The position numbers and the translations under genes are program-made. Source: Escherichia coli (GTDB taxonomy: Bacteria; Pseudomonadota; Gammaproteobacteria; Enterobacterales; Enterobacteriaceae). Taken from it: DNA of 64,000 nt. Shown in pieces: positions 42,181 through 58,109 of the stretch. The stretch is taken from assembly GCF_965641715.1 (NCBI RefSeq), contig NZ_OZ282453.1. One strand, 5' to 3'. The notes beneath the pieces are model-generated. The model did no database searches and was not told the DNA's origin. It saw only the letters and a list, made by a program, of their open reading frames with translations. Position 1 is the first letter of the stretch. Each line of letters opens with the position of its first letter.

Positions 42181-44461
42181 GACTCGGGGGCGTATTGCCC
42201 CCTCGCTAGCCCTGCCAATATCTAAGCGCACCGGCGATACTTTCGTTGGTGCTTATCCCTGGAATGCTCCCCGCGCTGCCATTGGCCGTGACAGACCCCT
42301 TACACGTGCCGAATTCCGTCAGGTGCAAGGTGTTTTATACCGGATTGACCGCCTGCCTTTCTTTCTTAAGACGTTGTTTACTTCCCGTTATAACTTCATT
42401 CGTCGCACAAAGAGCCCGCCCGGGGCGCTCTATTTCCTGAAAAACACCTTTGAGCGGAAGCTGTTGCCGCGTCTTGAGCGCGTTAACGAGCTGTGCGGGA
42501 TGAATGAATCTGCGTCGATTGGTTTCTTGTCTGAGCGTGACGAATATGCGCGCTTGCCTGATATGAATGACAAAGAGCTGAAAAAATTTGCGGCCAGAAT
42601 TGCCGCGCAGCTCTGGCGTAAATACGAGGAACTCAGCGACGAATGGGCTGAGGCATTCGGCGGTAAAGAGACCCTTTTCACCGATGAGGCGCAGGTGCAC
42701 ATATATGGTCAGGTGGCTGGTGTTGCACGCGCGTTCAACTTAACCCCGCTCTACTGGAAAAAATACCGTAAGGGTCAGATGACGATCCGCATGGCGTTTT
42801 CCGCTATTTCCCGTCTGATAAAAGATGATTGGTGGGTTAACCAGCTCAAGGCGCAGCGTATGCGCTGGCGCGAGGCGCTGCTTATCGCTGCCGGTGAAGT
42901 CAACAAAGACCGTTCACCTTACGCCAGCAAAATGGCGATCCGCGAGGTTCACTCGCGCCGGCTGGCTAATCTCGAATACCTGAAATCCTGTGAGCTGGAA
43001 AACAAAGTTACCGGCGAACGTATCGACCTCATCAGTAAAGTCATGGGGAGTATTTCAAACCCTGAAATACGCCGTATGGAGCTGATGAACACCATTGCCG
43101 GAATTGAACGCTATGCGGCCAGCGTTGGTGATGTGGGAATGTTTATCACGCTGACCACGCCGTCGAAGTATCACCCGACCCGACAGGTCGGCAAAGGTGA
43201 CAGCAAAACGGTGCAGCTCAATCACGGCTGGAACGAAACCGCATTCACCCCTAAAAACGGCCAGCGCTATCTGTGCCGAATCTGGAGCCTGATGCGTACC
43301 GCTTTCAAAGATAACGATTTGGAAGTGTATGGGATGCGCGTTGTCGAGCCGCACCACGACGGCACGCCACACTGGCATATGATGCTTTTTTGCAAACTCA
43401 GTCAGCGTAAAGCTATCAACGAAATTATGCGTCGTTATGCCCTCAAAGAGGACGGACACGAAAAGGGCGCGGCAAAACAGCGCTTTGAGTCGCGTCACCT
43501 TAATCAGGGGGGCGCGGCGGGTTATATCGCCAAATACATTGCCAAAAATATCGACGGCTACGCGCTTGACGGTCAGCTCGATCACGATACCGGCAAATCT
43601 CTGAAAGATACGGCCGCAGCCGTAACCGCATGGGCGTCTACATGGCGTATCCCTCAGTTTAAACCGATTGGCCTCCCGACAATGGGCGCTTACCGCGAAC
43701 TGCGTAAGCTGCCGCGCGGGGTGAGTATCGCCAGCGAGTTTGACGACCGTGTCGAGGCCGTCCGGGCTGCTGCAGATGAGGGGGAATTTGACCTGTACAT
43801 CAGCGCGCAGGGTGGGGCAAACATGCCGCGTGATGCTCAGGCGGTCAGGGTCGCCCGTAAGGTGACGGATGAGGTAAACGAATACGAGGAGGATATCGAG
43901 AAAGTGGTCGGTATTTATGCCCCTCATCTTGGGGTGAGCCGCGTACATGTAACCCGTACAGCGGAATGGCGCATAGTTCCAAAGGTTTTGGCCGTTGAGC
44001 CTTTGACCTTAAAAAGCGGCTCTGCCGCGCCTCGGAGTCCTGTCAATAACTGTGGAAAGCTTGCCGACGGTGGCGATCCAGTTATGACACCTACACCGTC
44101 TGAGCAAGCCGCAGCGGTGTTAAATCTGATTGAGGCCGGGGTTATCGGCTGGAATGAGCCAGACGTCATGAAGGTTCTTAACGGCGCGTTAAAAGCTGGC
44201 GCACCTCGCAATAATCGCCAGCAAAGAAGCAATGCGCCACTCAAAACGAGCGAGCAAGCTCCATCAGCCAGGATGACAACACCAGAAAGGGATCGCGTGG
44301 CGAAAATTCGTTTCGATTTGGCTCAGGAGGGCATTACCCCAGAACGGTGGGCGCTCGAAGCGCTGGCGCGTGGGGCAACGGTGATTTATGGCGATAAAAA
44401 AATCAAATACGCGGCTGCTGATGAGTGGCCGGGATTCTCAATTCAAGAGGAGCAGAATTAA
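42170..44461 (+). CDS. A: Replication initiation endonuclease A (rolling-circle Rep)
   Basis: About 763 aa from MAVETRGRIAPSLALPISKRTGDTFVGAYPW; HUH-like motif (HHDGTPHWHMMLF) and active-site Tyr region (AGYIAKYIAKNIDGY). Confidence 0.9.
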   Translation: MAVETRGRIAPSLALPISKRTGDTFVGAYPWNAPRAAIGRDRPLTRAEFRQVQGVLYRIDRLPFFLKTLFTSRYNFIRRTKSPPGALYFLKNTFERKLLPRLERVNELCGMNESASIGFLSERDEYARLPDMNDKELKKFAARIAAQLWRKYEELSDEWAEAFGGKETLFTDEAQVHIYGQVAGVARAFNLTPLYWKKYRKGQMTIRMAFSAISRLIKDDWWVNQLKAQRMRWREALLIAAGEVNKDRSPYASKMAIREVHSRRLANLEYLKSCELENKVTGERIDLISKVMGSISNPEIRRMELMNTIAGIERYAASVGDVGMFITLTTPSKYHPTRQVGKGDSKTVQLNHGWNETAFTPKNGQRYLCRIWSLMRTAFKDNDLEVYGMRVVEPHHDGTPHWHMMLFCKLSQRKAINEIMRRYALKEDGHEKGAAKQRFESRHLNQGGAAGYIAKYIAKNIDGYALDGQLDHDTGKSLKDTAAAVTAWASTWRIPQFKPIGLPTMGAYRELRKLPRGVSIASEFDDRVEAVRAAADEGEFDLYISAQGGANMPRDAQAVRVARKVTDEVNEYEEDIEKVVGIYAPHLGVSRVHVTRTAEWRIVPKVLAVEPLTLKSGSAAPRSPVNNCGKLADGGDPVMTPTPSEQAAAVLNLIEAGVIGWNEPDVMKVLNGALKAGAPRNNRQQRSNAPLKTSEQAPSARMTTPERDRVAKIRFDLAQEGITPERWALEALARGATVIYGDKKIKYAAADEWPGFSIQEEQN

Positions 44462-44925
44462 TGAGCAAAATCCATGAGTTAAAAATTGCACCTGAGTATT
44501 TTAACTCTGTGATATCTCAGGAAAAACGTGCTGAATTTCGTCTCAATGACCGCGATTATTCTAGCGGTGATATTCTCGGGTTGCATGAATGGGAACCGGT
44601 AAACAGATATACCGGGAAACGTGTATCAGTGAGGGTGACAAACGTTACGGATTTATCTGAATGGGCGGAAAATTATGTGATGCTGAGTTTTCAGTTAATG
44701 ATGCCAGATGTCCAGTGCGGTATGTCCCTAATGAACTGGAAAGAGTTAAGCGAGAAGGGGCTTGTTTTCAGAGTTAATCACGAAATTCTACACCCGTTAG
44801 GGCTGGCTATTAGATATGAAACACTTAACAGCGTTTCTGGTAGGGCTTACATCGCTGATGATGGTGTCTGGCAATATTCCGACAAGTTGGTCGCAGATGC
44901 TAAAAAAAATGGGTGGTTAAAATGA
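44461..44925 (+). CDS. Hypothetical phage protein (154 aa), possible PUA/ASCH-like fold
   Basis: Start ATG overlaps the A stop; N-terminus MSKIHELKIAPEYFNSVISQEKRAEFRLNDRDY. Confidence 0.5.
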   Translation: MSKIHELKIAPEYFNSVISQEKRAEFRLNDRDYSSGDILGLHEWEPVNRYTGKRVSVRVTNVTDLSEWAENYVMLSFQLMMPDVQCGMSLMNWKELSEKGLVFRVNHEILHPLGLAIRYETLNSVSGRAYIADDGVWQYSDKLVADAKKNGWLK

Positions 44926-45161
44926 GTCATATGCGAATGATGCCAGTGCCGCCGATACATTCAACGCAAAACATTAAGCTGATGGCCGTCGTACATCGCC
45001 TGCAACAAATTATGATTAACGAGAATCTGACCCCTGACGAACTGGTCGGGTGTGCCGGTGTCGTCCGGGATAATCACCGCAAATACAGCGATATCAGCAA
45101 TCCGAAAATTGAGGCGTTTCGGCCACCAAATATGGCAAAGCCACCACCGCGTCGACCATAG
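44913..45161 (+). CDS. Hypothetical small ORF (82 aa)
   Basis: Track ORF only. Confidence 0.3.
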   Translation: MVKMSHMRMMPVPPIHSTQNIKLMAVVHRLQQIMINENLTPDELVGCAGVVRDNHRKYSDISNPKIEAFRPPNMAKPPPRRP

Positions 45162-45443
45162 CAAACGCCGCCGGTGCTGAAACTTGTTTTCAGTGCCAGC
45201 GGTGTTGAGCAACGAGCCCCGCGAGACGTTAGCCTGCACCGTAGAGACCACCCCCAACCGGCACGATTAAAGTCGGTTTTATTATGCAATTTTCCCACAA
45301 TTTCCCGGTTTTTTAGCCGTGCATGCAACAGGTGCATTTTTTTGCATACGTTGGGGATGCCTGTTCTGGCCGCGCGCCGCCAGAGCAGGCGCGGATCCAG
45401 AGTGGTCATGCAACTGCATTAAAAACGACCCATAAAGCGGGCA

Positions 45444-45462
45444 GGCGAGGCGGGGTAAGCGT
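45444..45462. other. Candidate cos (cohesive-end) site
   Basis: Seen: GGCGAGGCGGGGTAAGCGT; the first 12 nt match the P2/186 cohesive end GGCGAGGCGGGGAAAGCAC as I recall it; sits in a GC-rich, structured non-coding stretch. Confidence 0.5.
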
Positions 45463-45533
45463 TGCGCGCGCCTGTCAAAGATATTAAGATTGTCTCAAAA
45501 TCGATTGATTTTATTGAACTAATGGAGCTAGGA

Positions 45534-47090
45534 ATGATTAAGGGTATAGGTCTTCAAAACTTCAGGAGCTTTGTCAACAAAACGTTTATTGATTTAAAAC
45601 CAATTACAGTATTTGTTGGTAAGAACAGCAGTGGTAAAAGTTCCCTATTGCGCACATTTCCTTTACTTCGTCAATCTGTAGAAGAAAATACTACTGGCCC
45701 AATACTATGGTATGGGAGATATGTGGATTTTGGCGATTTTACAGATGTACTTTCCCGAAACTCTGAAAAAAAAGAAATTACGTTTAGTTTTTCACTCTCA
45801 ATTCCGCCAGAGGTTTCACAAAGATATACATATTATCGTTCTACTGATTTAGCAAAGCAACCAACAGATATTGAAGCAGAGTTAACTGTTTACTCTAAAG
45901 ATAAAAAAACAAAAACGAAAACGATTAAGCTTATATTGGCTGATTTAACAATATTTATTTCAATGGATGAGAGTAGTAATGTTAAATTACTCATTGAATC
46001 AGATGATAAAACAATAGAGCGTGATGGGATAATAGCTAAAAATCTTGGGCAGTTCATACCAAATCTAATTTTGAAGGGTAAGGAAGACAGTCCTCCTCCA
46101 AGCACATCATTCTATTTGAGACATTCTAGGCATGACAGGGCGTTAGAATTGTCATTTATTGATTCAGCGGCGAAATATATAAAGAAATATTTCCATACTA
46201 AATCTGATATAAATCAAGTGACAGAGGCATTCAAAAGAATTGGCTTTATACCCAAAGCGTACGCTAGTAAATTAGTTGCTTTTCTATTTAAGGAACAAAA
46301 AGTTTTTAGTAGAAACTTTGAATTTCAACATGATGAAATAATGAATGAGTTATATCCATTTATAATTGGATGGAATATTAATAATCTTATAGATATAATA
46401 AATACATCCTTGTCAGATTCATTCAGAAATGTAAAGTACATAGCTCCACTGCGTGCTACATCAGAAAGATTTTATCGTTTTCAAGATTTACAGGTTAATG
46501 AGATAGATCATACTGGTTCCAATCTTGCAATGCTTTTGAATTCATTAAGACCGGCTGATAAATCAAAATTTGAAGATTGGACAAAGTTAAATTTTGATTT
46601 CATTATCAAGGTTGAACAAAGTGGCTCTCACTTTGCAATTTTAATAAACACCGGTGAAAATAGTGAGAACTATAATGTTAGTGATATGGGGTTTGGTTAT
46701 TCTCAGGTTTTGCCGATAGTTACAGCCATTTGGCTTGAGACAGAACGTCGTGCTACCACGGTTAGAAAACCTATAACATTTATCATTGAGCAGCCAGAAT
46801 TGCATTTACATCCGTCATATCAGCATAATTTAGCAAGTATTTTTGCAAAAGTAGTAACTAAAGCAAAAGAAAATAATGTAGATTTGAAGATAATTTTTGA
46901 GACACATAGCCAGACCATGATTGAAGCACTTGGTGAATATATTGAGGAAAATGAAAGTCTTTCACAGGATGATATTTCAATACTGGTATTTGAAAAAGAT
47001 GATAAGCAGCAGACTATAGTTAAGAAATCTTATTTTGACGAGAATGGTTTCCTAAAAAATTGGCCGGTTGGCTTTTTCTCGGGTAAGTAG
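45534..47090 (+). CDS. Cargo gene 1: ABC/OLD-type (AAA_15/AAA_21-like) ATPase, about 518 aa
   Basis: Walker A GKNSSGKSS; Walker B/D-loop FIIEQPELHLHP; H-loop-like IFETHS; AT-rich; SD GGAG upstream of the ATG chosen at MIKGIGLQNFRSF. Confidence 0.75.
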   Translation: MIKGIGLQNFRSFVNKTFIDLKPITVFVGKNSSGKSSLLRTFPLLRQSVEENTTGPILWYGRYVDFGDFTDVLSRNSEKKEITFSFSLSIPPEVSQRYTYYRSTDLAKQPTDIEAELTVYSKDKKTKTKTIKLILADLTIFISMDESSNVKLLIESDDKTIERDGIIAKNLGQFIPNLILKGKEDSPPPSTSFYLRHSRHDRALELSFIDSAAKYIKKYFHTKSDINQVTEAFKRIGFIPKAYASKLVAFLFKEQKVFSRNFEFQHDEIMNELYPFIIGWNINNLIDIINTSLSDSFRNVKYIAPLRATSERFYRFQDLQVNEIDHTGSNLAMLLNSLRPADKSKFEDWTKLNFDFIIKVEQSGSHFAILINTGENSENYNVSDMGFGYSQVLPIVTAIWLETERRATTVRKPITFIIEQPELHLHPSYQHNLASIFAKVVTKAKENNVDLKIIFETHSQTMIEALGEYIEENESLSQDDISILVFEKDDKQQTIVKKSYFDENGFLKNWPVGFFSGK

Positions 47091-47092
47091 TT

Positions 47093-48205
47093 ATGTTGAT
47101 TAATATCGAAAATGCGACACCTGAGAAGGTGCTAAATAACTCATTTGCCATAGCGGTTGAAAATATACTTCGGGCATTCGCTGAACAAAAACACTTGGTT
47201 ATAGGGGCAAGGGTTTTTTTTAAAACTATTATCAATGATCAAAGCGGGCTTTATAGCCTTTCATCAAAAAGTTACGCGCAAGAGGCTTTGTCGGGTCTAA
47301 CAGAGTACTATGCTATCTTGGATCAGGTCTCATTTTATGTATCTGTCGACTTTAATATTAGTGATAAATCATTTAAATGGGTTCAGATCGGTGAATCTTT
47401 TAAATTTGTTTGTGGTCCATTGTATTTTAATGACTCGGCACAATTGCAAAAAACGAAAATAGTATGTGAAAATCCTTTGGATTCTGATTTTTTTAAGGTT
47501 ATAGCGGCTCATTATGCCGAAGGTATTAACTTATCTCGCTGCGAAATGGGTTTTATCGCTCTAAATGGCGGTGGGGGCAGTACTAAGGATATATTCGAGC
47601 GTGCAATTCAAAATAATGAGATAGTTTTTTGTATTGTGGATAATGACAAAAAACATCCTGGAGCCCCATTCGGAGGTACTTGCTCACATTTTTTGGGCTC
47701 ACAAATTACTCGCTCAGGTTTCGTGGAGATTTTAGATGTACATGAAATAGAATCTCTAGTTCCTTTATCGACAATTGAAGATGTATTAAGAAGTCAAAGT
47801 CAATTGCAACAAAAAGAAAAATCTCTCATTTTCTTTAAGCATCTTTGCTCCGTAGATGAATCAGTAAAATTTTATATTGACCATAAAAAAGGTTTTGATT
47901 TTAAAACAGCCCTTGAACTCGATCGAAAACATGGTGCATATTGGCGTCCGATATTAAAGAAGCTTGATATAAAATATGATTGTGAGTATATCGAATCAAA
48001 ACGTTGTAGCTGCAACGCTGCTTGTGTAAGTTATGATGGTTTTGGAGAGAATTTGCTCAGCAATACATTGAAATATATACAAAAGGGAAGTTTAAAAAAA
48101 TATAATCCTCACCTAACACCAGTGCTTTCTGATAAATGGTATAAGTTAGGTAAGAATTTCTTTAGTTGGAGTTGTGGTCCATATAAAAAAGCAAGGGTTG
48201 GTTAA
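47093..48205 (+). CDS. Cargo gene 2: 370-aa partner protein, possible TOPRIM/DUF4435-like effector with C-terminal Cys cluster
   Basis: ATG 2 nt after the cargo-1 stop; hydrophobic strand plus DxD (IVFCIVDNDKKHPG); CEYIESKRCSCNAAC cluster; AT-rich. Confidence 0.65.
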   Translation: MLINIENATPEKVLNNSFAIAVENILRAFAEQKHLVIGARVFFKTIINDQSGLYSLSSKSYAQEALSGLTEYYAILDQVSFYVSVDFNISDKSFKWVQIGESFKFVCGPLYFNDSAQLQKTKIVCENPLDSDFFKVIAAHYAEGINLSRCEMGFIALNGGGGSTKDIFERAIQNNEIVFCIVDNDKKHPGAPFGGTCSHFLGSQITRSGFVEILDVHEIESLVPLSTIEDVLRSQSQLQQKEKSLIFFKHLCSVDESVKFYIDHKKGFDFKTALELDRKHGAYWRPILKKLDIKYDCEYIESKRCSCNAACVSYDGFGENLLSNTLKYIQKGSLKKYNPHLTPVLSDKWYKLGKNFFSWSCGPYKKARVG

Positions 48206-48300
48206 ATTATCACAGCCCCGATAAAGTGGGCTGTGATGTTATTATCTGTGGTTCTTGAGTTACAGGGCTGAATATAATGTTGAGATGTTTATTTTGAAAA

Positions 48301-49308
48301 TCAAAGTGAATATTTTTTAAATCTTATAACTTCCATTTCTAACCAGTTGTTTAGTTCTTTGAACCGTTCCTGTAAAGGAGTTAACTCATTTCGGACAAAC
48401 ACTTGTGCAGCTTTTACAACATCACCAAAACCGCCAACATTGTCAGGCATAATTCCCATCATTTGTGGTGGTACCCTATGAGCACTCAACAAATCTTCTG
48501 CACTAACCTTTTTGATATTGAAAAAATCATCTTTCGTGGCGACTTCACTCAACGGCACAATCTTGATGCCATCCGGTTTCCCGTTGGGCGCGTAGAAAAA
48601 CAGGTTTTTGAAATTCCCGAGTCCTTTTGAGTCGCGCATCGCGTTACGGAGAGATTCAACATCGGTGCTGCTCTGTGCCGCGTCGGTGACATACATGATG
48701 TACCCCGCATGTGCGCCATTCTGATAATACTTGCGGCGAAACAGGGTAGCGGATTCATTCAGCCAGGCGGAATTAAGCGCGCTCAGGTATTCCGGCATCC
48801 CGTACAGCTCCTGATTGATATCGGGCTCAAGCAGGTGACACACAGAACCGGGGGCGAACGGGTGCGGCTGGGTGTAGCTCGACACGTACCAGTAAACGCC
48901 ATCTTCGACACCCCGGCGGGTGTATTTGGCCGGTGAGGTTTCCAGTTTTAAGAGCTGGCCGGTGACGCTCATGCGCTTCTCAAGATAGCCGTTGGCAAAA
49001 ACCAGATAATCAAGCACAAGGCGACTGAAATCCTGACGTGACAGCAACGGGTGCGGGATATAGGTGCTCGTCAGAATGTTACGTTTCACGTAAATCGGCG
49101 AGCTGTGATGGACGGCGGCGCGCAGGCTTTTTGCCAGTCCCGAGAAATTGACCGGCGGCTCGTACCATTTCCCGTTATTGATACACTCTACGTAGTCGAG
49201 GATGTCGCGGCGATCCAGAACGGGAGAAGGCTCACCAAAGGTGAACGCCTCCATTTTTTGCGGTGCGCTGGCGGTCATTGTGGCGGGTTTCTTCTGTCGT
49301 TTTTTCAT
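48301..49308 (-). CDS. Q: Portal protein (gpQ)
   Basis: 335 aa; position and length as P2 Q; divergent from the capsid operon. Confidence 0.85.
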   Translation of the reverse strand: MKKRQKKPATMTASAPQKMEAFTFGEPSPVLDRRDILDYVECINNGKWYEPPVNFSGLAKSLRAAVHHSSPIYVKRNILTSTYIPHPLLSRQDFSRLVLDYLVFANGYLEKRMSVTGQLLKLETSPAKYTRRGVEDGVYWYVSSYTQPHPFAPGSVCHLLEPDINQELYGMPEYLSALNSAWLNESATLFRRKYYQNGAHAGYIMYVTDAAQSSTDVESLRNAMRDSKGLGNFKNLFFYAPNGKPDGIKIVPLSEVATKDDFFNIKKVSAEDLLSAHRVPPQMMGIMPDNVGGFGDVVKAAQVFVRNELTPLQERFKELNNWLEMEVIRFKKYSL

Positions 49309-56056: not shown

Positions 56057-56486
56057 CGCCGTGCCGCAGTTAAAAAACAATCCCGAAATGATGCGCATCT
56101 TTGCCGATGAGGGAAATATCTATGCGCGTCTCGCGGCCTCGCTGTCTCATGAAAAGAATTACACCCTGAATGTGATCGTCTGCGATTTTGTGGGCGACCC
56201 TGACCTGATTTTCGTGCCGGTGGCGGCATGGCTGCGTGAGAACCAGCCGGATATCTGCACGCTGGATGAGGGGCGCAAAAAGGGCTATCGGTTCCAGATG
56301 GATTTAAACGACGGTGATAATGTGGATATCAGTATCAGCCTGCAGCTCACCGAGCGCACTCTCGTCAGGGATGAAAATGGTGCGCTGCACGTCAGCTATG
56401 CGCCTGAACCACCTTTACCCGAGCCGGTGACGCGGCCAACTGAGCTGTATATCAATGGCGAACTGGTGAGCAAATGGGATGAATGA
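56019..56486 (+). CDS. R: Tail completion protein R
   Basis: 155 aa; position. Confidence 0.75.
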   Translation: MQKMKSLRQALTDAVPQLKNNPEMMRIFADEGNIYARLAASLSHEKNYTLNVIVCDFVGDPDLIFVPVAAWLRENQPDICTLDEGRKKGYRFQMDLNDGDNVDISISLQLTERTLVRDENGALHVSYAPEPPLPEPVTRPTELYINGELVSKWDE

Positions 56487-56946
56487 ATTTAAACCTTTTG
56501 ATGACAAGCTTGCGGGGTTGATTGCGGCAATATCACCGGCGGGTAGGCGTAAGCTGGCCGCTGAAATAGCAAAGCAACTGCGCAGATCGCAACAGCAACG
56601 CATCAAACAGCAAATTGCGCCTGATGGCACGCCGTATCAGGCTCGTAAGCGCCAGCCGCTCAGGGCAAAATCGGGGCGAATCAAAAGGTCGATGTTCCAG
56701 AAATTGCGAACCAGTCGCTACATGAAAGCCAGTGGCCGCAATGATGCCGCCGTGGTGGAGTTTACCGGCAAAGTGCAACGCATCGCCCAGATTCATCAGC
56801 TCGGACTCAAAGACCGGCCAAACCCTCATGCTCAGGACGTGCAATACCCGGAACGCCAGTTACTCGGATTTAGCATGACTGATAAGGAGTTGATTGAACT
56901 GTTAATTAACATGCATTTCAGAAAAAATACTGTGGCTGAATGCTGA
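56479..56946 (+). CDS. S: Tail completion protein S
   Basis: 155 aa; position. Confidence 0.75.
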   Translation: MNEFKPFDDKLAGLIAAISPAGRRKLAAEIAKQLRRSQQQRIKQQIAPDGTPYQARKRQPLRAKSGRIKRSMFQKLRTSRYMKASGRNDAAVVEFTGKVQRIAQIHQLGLKDRPNPHAQDVQYPERQLLGFSMTDKELIELLINMHFRKNTVAEC

Positions 56947-57038
56947 GAGTCCTAAGAAAATAGAGAAAGCAGATATTATACAAAAAAGATAATATCTGCT
57001 GCTGGGTCGATATTTGAATGTATTTATTTAATCTATTG

Positions 57039-57791
57039 CTAACGTTCGAATATTATTATCACCCCAAGAGTGAGATGTATATGATCTTCTATTTGTTCAT
57101 ATTCTTCTTGGGTGTAAGAAAGTTTAGCTAATTCTTCTGTTGCTGAAAAGACATCAATGGATACTTGGACGCCTGATGGGATTTCATTTTTTATTTCATT
57201 AATGTATTTGTTGTATTTTCTTGTGATTAGTATTATTGCGCGATCTCTGTCGACGGTGGTTGAGCAATATCGATTGGATTTGCTGTTGTTATTGTGGAAT
57301 GATTCGAATGCGCAATTGAGGGCAAGTCTTAGATTTGATGATCCTGTATTTCCAGTGTGATTGAAGTATTCTATGTTTCTTCTTAAGTCTTCAAATAGTT
57401 TTGCCTTATTTGGATTGTCCCCTTTAACTTCAATAGCACATTTTGGATAATCAAACCCATTATTATTGCCTAGTATGGCAATGTCTATCCTACCTTTTCT
57501 GGTTGTGTTTGCTTTGATTCTTAGTATTTGCCTTGAAAATATTTTCCCCGGCGTTAGTCTTTTTGAAAATGGCACCGTTGAAGTTATAAAATCCCCTGTA
57601 TCATATTCAAAAATTATTTTCTCATCATCTATGTGAAAATTTTTACTATCAAGTAGGGCTTTGCCTATTGATACAGTAGCGACGTATTCGGTATTGATTT
57701 TACCACCAGAACTGAAATTCATTAAACGTGTGATTTTAGCTGCATTGGACATGCCATCCTTTACTGCTGTGATTATTTCGTAATTGTCCAT
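57039..57791 (-). CDS. Cargo gene (moron), 250 aa, candidate PD-(D/E)xK-fold nuclease
   Basis: Opposite strand to the late genes; AT-rich; motif RIDIAILG...CAIEVKGD (D...E-x-K). Confidence 0.6.
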   Translation of the reverse strand: MDNYEIITAVKDGMSNAAKITRLMNFSSGGKINTEYVATVSIGKALLDSKNFHIDDEKIIFEYDTGDFITSTVPFSKRLTPGKIFSRQILRIKANTTRKGRIDIAILGNNNGFDYPKCAIEVKGDNPNKAKLFEDLRRNIEYFNHTGNTGSSNLRLALNCAFESFHNNNSKSNRYCSTTVDRDRAIILITRKYNKYINEIKNEIPSGVQVSIDVFSATEELAKLSYTQEEYEQIEDHIHLTLGVIIIFER

Positions 57792-58109
57792 ATTATTTAC
57801 TCAGGTAACTGTTTTATTTTGATTGTTCTTACTGGATGTTTTATAAGTATAATAATTTGGATTATGCTAATCAACTAGTCTTCTTTCGGCTTTTACTAAT
57901 GACTCATTTATGAATGATAATGTTATGATTCCAGCAACCGAAGTGGGTATTTTTTTGCACCCAAGTGATCGTTTTGTGGAACTAATATGAGTCTATAAGT
58001 ATCCCTATTTCACTAGTAGGTTGAGACGTCACACTTGCTGGCTGTTGTTTCATGCCCCACAAAACTCAGCTCAATTGTCGCTGGCCTCACTAGGCGGCAT
58101 CCTTTCCCC

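Follow-up and report, generated by a model that had tools for sequence, protein, structure and literature searches.

We describe a pair of genes in a P2-like prophage of Escherichia coli (positions 45534-48205 of the analysed stretch of 64,000 nt, referred to as the window) that probably makes up an anti-phage defence module complete in itself; its activity we infer, and the P2 A-Q hotspot is the cargo site that it occupies. We interpret the cassette as a new variant within the defence class that combines an ABC ATPase with a nuclease: gene 1 is, as judged from profile searches, an OLD-type ABC ATPase of an NsnB-like clade, and gene 2 is a predicted OLD-type Toprim nuclease.

Both genes lie on the plus strand. 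Gene 1 (45534-47090) encodes 518 aa beginning with MIKGIGLQNF, with the same start in RefSeq, and gene 2 (47093-48205, open reading frame with stop codon) encodes 370 aa. The junction reads ...GGTAAG TAG TT ATG, leaving 2 nt between stop and start, and this bears out the tight coupling of two genes claimed in a preliminary description of the locus. That description had also pointed to an AT-rich composition against GC-richer surroundings, and we observed a GC content of 0.29-0.37 across 45600-48400 compared to 0.52-0.60 in both flanks. Its placement of the cassette in the prophage, with a cos-like site on one side and portal gene Q on the other, agrees with the RefSeq annotation of an identical region, where the order is integrase, cox, replication endonuclease A, DUF3850, cassette, portal Q and terminase P, with the DUF3850 gene upstream of cos and portal Q downstream of the cassette. 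On the A side the cargo is bounded by the cos-like core GGCGAGGCGGGGTAAGCGT (45444-45462), which differs at 3 positions from what we take to be the P2 cos core, a match expected 0.03 times by chance. Yersinia phage P37 aligns with its terminus at 45408-45460, and the AT-rich DNA sets in about 10 nt past the core. By eye, some 50 nt around the site resemble the P4 cos regions in Table S2A of Rousset et al. A Shine-Dalgarno-like sequence, GGAGCTAGGA (45524-45533, plus strand), was read immediately 5' of the gene 1 ATG, and a promoter scan between cos and this ATG found no consensus sigma-70 promoter. At the other end a stable terminator-like hairpin (48208-48238, plus strand) lies 5 nt past the gene 2 stop, where gene 2 and Q converge; it folds at -19.5 kcal/mol (z = -5.1), and none of 200 shuffled sequences folds equally well.

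The gpA-gpQ (A-Q) region of P2 is a documented defence hotspot (Rousset 2022), and the view of the locus as an A-to-Q cargo hotspot was thus correct. The suggestion that the cassette might be an undescribed variant stands insofar as it fits no named system, but not in full, as Table S5B of Rousset et al. (2022) already lists the cassette as P2-hotspot system #36, occurring 105 times. It was found neither among the tested systems of that study nor in indexed papers; literature searches with RefSeq accessions and with PDC-M55 gave no record, and the DefensePredictor preprint contains no relevant mention of it.

For gene 1, Pfam searches returned AAA_15 (94.9 bits, E 1e-26) together with DUF3696 (1.1e-6, residues 477-515), and among the PADLOC models NsnB scored best (3.7e-55), followed by PDC-M55A (6.9e-46), HEC-03B (1.4e-37) and AriA (3.1e-31). 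By this ranking and by its DUF3696 tail, gene 1 is nearest to NsnB rather than to AriA. The OLD/ABC-type ATPase proposed earlier is supported by these profiles, and of the motifs named for it, Walker A (GKNSSGKS, G29-S36, 45618-45641) and the H-loop (ETHS within IFETHS, 46899-46910) are present, whereas EQPELHLHP (46788-46814), previously taken as the D-loop alone, comprises a non-canonical Walker B plus D-loop. A signature-like motif, DMGFGYSQ, spans residues 384-391, and the DUF3696 tail with NWPxGFF extends over 46962-47078; all of these features are on the plus strand. In the Walker B the canonical D-E is replaced by E-Q, and this exchange is invariant in orthologues, which suggests from the sequences that the protein may act as an ATP-binding switch rather than as a fast hydrolase. 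The motifs of gene 1, NWPxGFF included, are invariant in 6 orthologues with 32-41% identity, and the ATPase models come out in the same order as for gene 1, NsnB first, when orthologues from a Pf phage, a cyanobacterium and a metagenome contig are scored.

The product of gene 2 has no match in Pfam (even at E<=10), NCBIfam or PHROGs, and its sequence alone, or a profile of 16 sequences, gave only chance matches against solved structures. Structure prediction was confident and divides the protein into three parts: an N-terminal alpha/beta domain (aa 1-118, 47093-47446), a Toprim nuclease core delimited by predicted structure and conserved residues (aa 119-236, 47447-47800) and a helical, Cys-bearing C-terminal region (aa 237-370 and stop, 47801-48205), all on the plus strand. 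The best matches of this model among solved structures are OLD nucleases, AriB, retron Eco2 and GajA. In the Toprim core, E126 and D130 come after b1, residues 159-161 form a GGG loop, b3 ends in D183xD185, and E218 and E220 come after b4; E126, D183xD185 and E220 are invariant across the family. The DxD element (IVDNDKK) pointed out in the preliminary description is this invariant Toprim motif, and like Walker A and IFETHS of gene 1 it is invariant or nearly so in orthologues. The Pfam, profile and structure searches proposed there have yielded AAA_15 and DUF3696 for gene 1, and for gene 2 a Pfam-blank protein with a modelled Toprim fold near OLD and AriB. The N-terminal domain is variable and Rossmann-like, and we propose that it may serve as a docking or specificity module. 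We considered an NsnC-like inactive PIN domain for this part, but a separate high-confidence model matched only generic Rossmann-like folds, and for this reason we do not claim it to be PIN-like. In the C-terminal region D263, K265 and G267 are conserved, as are cysteines at alignment columns 299, 305, 311 and 361, which from the sequences could form a metal site; column 299 is Tyr in the E. coli protein versus Cys in 97% of the family, and the Cys loop (290-310) is the sole segment modelled with low confidence. When the gene 2 family was compared by hhalign with an AriB alignment, the result was not significant (probability 2.3%, E 0.021), and neither was the comparison with two AriB sequences. 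Hhalign nevertheless placed the E and hEhEN motifs in register.

The pair is found well beyond this prophage. At a coverage of at least 80% the cassette occurs in 38 of 5,426 complete E. coli genomes, and all 57 E. coli matches, full or partial, are chromosomal. In an HMM search of representatives the gene 2 family, clustered at 50% identity, comprises about 1,400 clusters with a uniform full-length, two-gene architecture, and the family ranges from Enterobacterales to cyanobacteria and Desulfuromonadales, including P2-like and Pf phages. A scan of genome contigs with a narrow alignment gave only 4 loci, so that for the taxonomic spread we rely chiefly on the HMM search and on sampled contigs. 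Outside E. coli an ATPase gene lies directly upstream of gene 2 in all 17 loci examined. In the 12 loci tested by tblastn, a gene 1 homologue ends immediately upstream of gene 2 in every case (3 of them being short contigs that hold only its C-terminal part), and in the remaining 5 the upstream gene encodes an AAA_15 ATPase of 516-529 aa by Pfam. The distance from stop to start is at most 11 nt in 16 of the 17 loci and 48 nt in Geitlerinema. In the window and in all 17 loci the two proteins are encoded by separate open reading frames, and no third gene accompanies the pair consistently across the non-E. coli loci; a frameshift affects two enterobacterial copies. The pair is present in a P2-like myovirus and in a Pseudomonas Pf inovirus, elsewhere it adjoins an integrase and DUF4238, or BrxL, TA modules or methyltransferases, and it also occurs as a bare stand-alone chromosomal insertion among housekeeping genes. 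The gene pairing is obligate and the pair is mobile.

Several known systems share parts of this design. The OLD family nucleases have a Toprim core with a conserved Glu and DxD and, according to the predicted structure, gene 2 shares their OLD-like fold. In OLD classes 1-3 (P2 Old; Gabija GajA; retrons Eco2/Eco8) ATPase and Toprim are fused, whereas the cassette encodes them as separate polypeptides; sequence similarity to the Old models is confined to the first ~45 aa (P-loop region), no GajB UvrD-like helicase occurs in the window cassette or in annotated related loci, and in contrast to retrons Eco2/Eco8 the cassette has no reverse transcriptase. Judged by its sequence matches, the cassette is a weak relative of PDC-M55, a phage defence candidate of PADLOC (Payne et al. 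2024 preprint). Gene 1 matches the PDC-M55A model as given above, and PDC-M55B is the sole model matched by gene 2 and most of its relatives, within the Toprim core. This match is partial for gene 2 (2.1e-4, 19 bits), nine relatives score 18-37 bits or nothing, and the profile has 315 positions versus ~370 aa in the family proteins. As the matches are weak and partial, the gene 2 family appears to be a sister of PDC-M55B rather than a member. Control of a separately encoded nuclease by a related ABC ATPase, in a system of two genes, is also known from HEC-03 (ABC ATPase and PIN), a validated defence system requiring both genes (Payne et al.), and from WonAB (OLD-ABC ATPase and PD-(D/E)xK), likewise validated, whose nuclease, by prediction, docks on the C-terminal extensions of WonA once these have dimerised (PMC12137116). 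Their effectors are PIN or PD-(D/E)xK proteins, while that of the cassette is a predicted OLD-type Toprim; for HEC-01, also a pair of ABC ATPase and TOPRIM, the assays of Payne et al. showed no defence.

The preliminary description had called the pair a candidate anti-phage defence system and had compared it to PARIS (AriA/AriB) or to a split OLD-like system, possibly a distinct one. Both the candidate status and the distinctness hold, but the ATPase is nearer to NsnB than to AriA. It is highly improbable that the cassette is a divergent genuine PARIS, in which an anti-restriction trigger such as Ocr would release a tRNA-cleaving Toprim effector. Gene 1 does fit the AAA_15/AAA_21 detection rule for PARIS (Rousset 2022), well above its threshold of 32 bits, and the AriA model does match it, yet gene 1 and its distant orthologues score far better on NsnB, PDC-M55A and HEC-03B than on AriA; the ATPase is of another clade and carries the DUF3696 tail. 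Gene 2 is ~60 aa longer than the AriB-family sequences examined (303-316 aa), which leave no room for its 118-aa N-domain and its Cys-bearing C-terminal region. To this is added the non-significant AriB comparison, and none of 34 gene 2 family members, that is gene 2 and 33 diverse relatives, matches DUF4435 (PF14491); because DUF4435 is lacking, we do not regard the cassette as PARIS. Menshen, composed of NsnA, NsnB and NsnC (Millman 2022; analysed in PMC12065111), is closer on the ATPase side: NsnB is the top model, the DUF3696 C-terminal helix is shared, the signature motif has GxG in place of SGG in an NsnB-like manner, and the Walker B is acidic-amide in both (E-Q in gene 1, E-N in NsnB). 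In both systems an effector gene follows the ATPase gene, gene 2 has, like NsnC, a variable N-terminal alpha/beta part followed by a nuclease domain, and some NsnC effectors have a Toprim fold (DUF4276, RloB). Even so, an incomplete Menshen, either with NsnA (DUF262/ParB) encoded elsewhere or as a non-functional remnant, is quite improbable. A screen of the neighbourhood for NsnA-type (DUF262) genes, covering the window, the Pf phage and the 9 loci whose neighbours carry Pfam annotation, but not four other loci, found none beside the pair, and since NsnA is missing the cassette is not Menshen. Moreover, gene 2 matches no NsnC, DUF4276 or RloB model, its N-domain shows no PIN similarity, and its predicted combination of an OLD-type Toprim with a helical Cys-bearing region is not BECR, DUF4276 or RloB. 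The uniform full-length architecture of the ~1,400 clusters argues against decay.

A role outside defence is unlikely, though less so: the pair could be an addiction or TA-like stabiliser of a mobile element, or a nuclease complex of the phage cycle (DNA processing, Rad50-like repair, satellite interference). Mobile elements carry the cassette, the copy in the Pf phage bears the annotation 'rad50 ATPase', and roughly one in four cargo items of the P2 hotspot serves a purpose other than defence, e.g. partitioning. However, gene 1 lacks a coiled-coil insertion and there is no Mre11/SbcD partner, and no member of the ATPase clade (NsnB, HEC-03, AriA, PDC-M55) is known outside defence systems and candidates for them. 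Deletion of either PARIS gene, or of wonA in WonAB, is non-toxic, which speaks against toxin-antitoxin logic in those relatives. That the pair turns up in phages of unrelated type, and also in chromosomes as a bare insertion, indicates that it is not bound to the life cycle of a single phage.

The preferred reading of a defence module draws on the hotspot location, the ATPase profile matches, the gene pairing, the mobility of the pair and the precedents of NsnB, WonAB, HEC-03, AriB and P2 OLD. Points that weigh against it are the negative HEC-01 assays, the non-significant AriB comparison, the lack of recognisable PIN likeness in the N-domain, the Tyr at column 299, the two frameshifted copies and the failure to find a clear promoter. 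For this reading we propose the following mechanism. The gene 1 ATPase would oligomerise, and its DUF3696 tail with NWPxGFF may bind the variable N-terminal domain of gene 2, by analogy with the NsnB tails, which are predicted to clamp the N-terminal domain of NsnC (PMC12065111). Such binding would hold the OLD-type Toprim nuclease inactive until a phage-derived cue, sensed by the ATPase, alters its ATP-bound state and thereby releases or activates gene 2. The nuclease would then cleave nucleic acid in a metal-dependent manner via E126, D183, D185, E218 and E220; by analogy the target might be tRNA, which AriB and P2 OLD cleave as tRNases, or, following GajA, DNA. Infection would then be halted, most likely through abortive growth arrest. 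More tentatively, the pair may stand for an unnamed immune family of considerable size (at least about 1,400 clusters), a sensor-less hybrid of Menshen and split OLD/PARIS, in which an NsnB-type ATPase, locked by E-Q in an ATP-binding mode, is itself the sensor and gates a Toprim nuclease with its own variable recognition domain and Cys metal site.

As the design principle is well known, the advance is incremental rather than conceptual. If active, the cassette would be a named, widespread addition to the ABC-ATPase-plus-nuclease immune superfamily and would give an annotation to a family of ~370-aa proteins that is blank in Pfam, NCBIfam and PHROGs. It would also be a naturally occurring case in which to examine whether ATPases of the NsnB type can sense infection without the NsnA DNA sensor, and the invariant E-Q Walker B provides a handle on the question raised by the HEC study, whether ATP binding or hydrolysis gates the effectors. 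Since the module is carried by a P2-like myovirus as well as by a filamentous Pf phage, it may be relevant to phage-phage competition in both E. coli and P. aeruginosa.

The cassette was found to consist of two open reading frames whose positions agree exactly with those in the preliminary description: gene 1 extends from 45534 to 47090 (518 aa) and gene 2 from 47093 to 48205 (370 aa), with a junction that reads TAG-TT-ATG. A Shine–Dalgarno-like GGAG...AGGA is located 5' of gene 1, and a stable hairpin (−19.5 kcal/mol, z = −5.1) lies 5 nt past the gene 2 stop codon. A longer gene 1 frame starting from a TTG at 45462 finds no support, because RefSeq and all orthologues begin with MIKGIGL/MKSI. 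The GC content is 0.29–0.37 over the cassette compared to 0.52–0.60 on either flank. The surrounding P2-like prophage adjoins yegR and is arranged as integrase, C-like HTH, cox, replication endonuclease A, DUF3850, a small ORF, the cassette, convergent portal Q and terminase P. That the cargo lies between cos and Q, as had been proposed from inspection, follows from three observations: a cos-like core is present at 45444-45462, the sequence around it is similar to the P4 cos regions printed in Table S2A of Rousset et al. 2022, and 45408-45460 matches the terminus of Yersinia phage P37. Between replication gene A and cos, the DUF3850/ASCH ORF (166 aa) and a second ORF of 82 aa that overlaps it (44425-45161) gave a marginal PDC-M11B match (0.0029) as their sole PADLOC signal. 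An identical cassette with at least 80% coverage was observed in 38 of 5,426 complete E. coli genomes, and all 57 E. coli matches in complete genomes, full or partial, were chromosomal.

The second variable locus of P2 lies between the morphogenesis gene S (56479-56946) and the baseplate gene V. At this site we found a 250-aa Tin homologue on the minus strand (57039-57791; PADLOC Tin 5.6e-93, no Pfam match), so that the prophage bears a known T-even exclusion gene in its other cargo slot. In P2 itself, tin lies beside old in the A–Q hotspot. The reference genome NZ_AP021944 (L001 23520-25252), which has an identical A–Q cassette, differs at the S–V locus (window 57000-58100), where it holds another gene, for a hypothetical protein of 328 aa; the contents of the two slots therefore vary independently in this prophage lineage.

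For gene 1, Pfam returned AAA_15 over the full length (1e-26), AAA_21 and a C-terminal DUF3696 (1.1e-6, residues 477-515). Among the PADLOC models the Menshen ATPase NsnB ranked highest (3.7e-55), followed by PDC-M55A (6.9e-46), HEC-03B (1.4e-37) and the PARIS ATPase AriA (3.1e-31), with the GajA, Old, AbiLi and HEC-01 models far below AriA; the ranking was unchanged for orthologues from a cyanobacterium, a metagenome contig and a Pseudomonas Pf phage. No NCBIfam family scored above its cut-off, and the PHROGs match, phrog_21420, has no assigned function there. We aligned six gene 1 orthologues (32–41% identity) and observed that the Walker A GxNxxGKS, a signature-like DMGFGxSQ, the Walker B/D-loop EQPELHLHP, the H-loop ETHS and the tail NWPxGFF are invariant. 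The acidic pair of Walker B, E419-Q420 (46788-46793), reads E-Q in place of the canonical D-E, and this is kept in the cyanobacterial, Vibrio, Desulfuromonadales and Pf phage orthologues. In an ABC ATPase, an amide at the position of the catalytic base would point to a switch that works by binding ATP and hydrolyses it slowly; the equivalent E-to-Q change in other ABC ATPases is an experimental trap for the ATP-bound dimer. NsnB has E-N at the equivalent site, together with a GxG signature (PMC12065111). Taken together, the model ranking, the invariant motifs and the parallel with NsnB identify gene 1 as an OLD-ABC ATPase of the NsnB clade.

Of the Pfam families that had been named for comparison, AAA_15 and AAA_21 were recovered in gene 1, while gene 2 yielded neither DUF4435 nor any other match even at E ≤ 10, and none in NCBIfam or PHROGs. 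Likewise, 34 diverse gene 2 relatives matched no Pfam family at E ≤ 0.001 and eight matched no NCBIfam model. The only database signal of gene 2 was a weak, partial PADLOC match to PDC-M55B (2.1e-4, residues 123-281), for which nine relatives scored 18–37 bits or nothing. Searching by word index yielded just 31 clusters, chiefly from Enterobacterales. When 1.84 billion representatives were searched with a profile, the number rose to 1,855 clusters at E ≤ 1e-3 and to 1,416 at the stricter E ≤ 1e-10, and among the 150 matches listed almost all were full-length, at about 370 aa. The family is large and without annotation. An AlphaFold2 model built from 16 sequences was confident (pLDDT 88.6, pTM 0.88) and showed three regions. 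Residues 1-118 form an alpha/beta domain (pLDDT 96.8 when modelled alone) that is the most variable part, with Met1 alone invariant. Residues 119-236 form a Toprim core, in which E126 closes strand b1 and D183xD185 closes strand b3, the latter being the DxD element already noticed in the preliminary description; D130 (97%), the GGG loop 159-161 and E218/E220 are also conserved, and E126, G159, G161, D183, D185 and E220 are invariant in 34 sequences, down to 20% identity. Residues 237-370 are helical, with conserved D263/K265/G267 and Cys at alignment columns 299, 305, 311 and 361. The Cys loop is the sole low-confidence stretch, which would be compatible with a metal site left unmodelled by AlphaFold. 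In E. coli gene 2 (residues 297-299, window 47981-47989), column 299 is Tyr where 97% of the family has Cys, with Cys found at 297 and 307, so that in this lineage the putative metal site may have a different arrangement. Foldseek gave no significant match, but its top ranks were nonetheless GajA and retron Eco2, and the depositors of Pseudomonas phage 62-2 independently labelled their homologue 'putative OLD family nuclease'. We conclude from motif evidence that is strong and fold evidence that is moderate that gene 2 probably encodes a Toprim nuclease of the OLD type that has an additional domain at its N terminus.

In 17 loci surveyed outside E. coli, the pair is the unit. A gene 1 homologue ends immediately upstream of gene 2 in 12 of them by tblastn (three on short contigs that hold only its C-terminal part), and in the remaining five the upstream gene encodes a 516–529 aa AAA_15 ATPase by Pfam. 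The stop–start distance is at most 11 nt in 16 loci and 48 nt in Geitlerinema, and BLASTP gives an identity of 33% to gene 1 for four full-length orthologues (about 32% by tblastn). No conserved third gene accompanies the pair in the 17 loci, and a DUF262/NsnA gene is absent from the Pf phage and the nine loci with Pfam-annotated neighbours, a set that leaves out loci L010-L013. The contexts differ widely. In E. coli the pair occupies the P2 hotspot. In a Pf-like inovirus, the filamentous P. aeruginosa phage 62-2 (OR621022.1, L014:4399-7035), it lies at the end near the repressor; the 'rad50 ATPase' of this phage is 33% identical to gene 1, and its nuclease matches gene 2 at 27% identity over 97% of its length. 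Elsewhere the pair is found in an islet together with an integrase and DUF4238, a validated defence gene (Rousset 2022), as bare two-gene insertions amid housekeeping genes in Klebsiella aerogenes, Providencia and one more lineage, and in neighbourhoods with BrxL, HNH, toxin–antitoxin pairs, methyltransferases or transposases. Some copies have decayed, namely those of Pectobacterium PL152, Morganella psychrotolerans and Thiothrix unzii (L010:5452-8089, L011:5436-8068, L002:5338-8001): the first two are frameshifted, and the Pectobacterium copy has integrase fragments and an Ogr/Delta-like zinc-finger ORF as neighbours; in Thiothrix an IS element, a transposase pair, has inserted into the ATPase gene and split it. 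A self-contained, horizontally mobile, patchy and sometimes decaying pair is typical of defence cargo.

The gpA–gpQ hotspot was defined by Rousset et al. 2022, whose Table S5B lists the cassette as system #36, 'AAA_15/AAA_21/AAA_23', with 105 occurrences among 18,150 loci; its gene 2 sequence is identical to that of the window and the displayed part of gene 1 differs by one residue. By sequence comparison neither protein is present in their table of tested systems, and the RefSeq accessions are cited in no indexed paper. The cassette is catalogued but unnamed, with an effector family that lacks any annotation. A resemblance to PARIS or a split OLD system, perhaps as a distinct variant, had been suggested at the outset, and the cassette does belong with PARIS, Menshen, OLD and PDC-M55 to a superfamily of ABC-ATPase-plus-effector defences and would work in a similar way. 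It is not PARIS, which requires the DUF4435 that gene 2 lacks; nor is it Menshen, since NsnA is absent from the annotated neighbourhoods and gene 2 has no NsnC match, or a class 1-3 OLD system, since the genes are split and no helicase or retron is present. At best the cassette is a sister of PDC-M55, and PDC systems are candidates by definition (PADLOC).

Several related systems show one common logic. For Menshen, AlphaFold3 predicts a clamp around the N-terminal domain of NsnC, formed by two DUF3696 tails of an NsnB dimer (PMC12065111); for WonAB, docking of the nuclease is predicted to occur on dimerised C-terminal extensions of the OLD-ABC ATPase, defence is lost in ATPase mutants and activation arrests translation (PMC12137116). 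HEC-03 (ABC ATPase plus PIN) requires both genes, PARIS releases the tRNase AriB, and P2 OLD is a tRNase opened by tetramer destabilisation. Given the domains, motifs and gene pairing established here, we propose by analogy that a gene 1 oligomer would sequester the gene 2 nuclease through contacts between tail and N-terminal domain, that a cue from the phage would alter the state of the ATP-bound ATPase and so activate or release the Toprim nuclease, and that cleavage of tRNA or DNA would stop infection. As a whole, with complex, trigger, substrate and phenotype all taken from analogy, such an ATPase-gated nuclease seems to us probable on balance, and a role in defence more broadly is likely. 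The architecture would not surprise a specialist; the family is large and recurrent in phages, and it bears on how infection is sensed by NsnB-type ATPases that work without NsnA.
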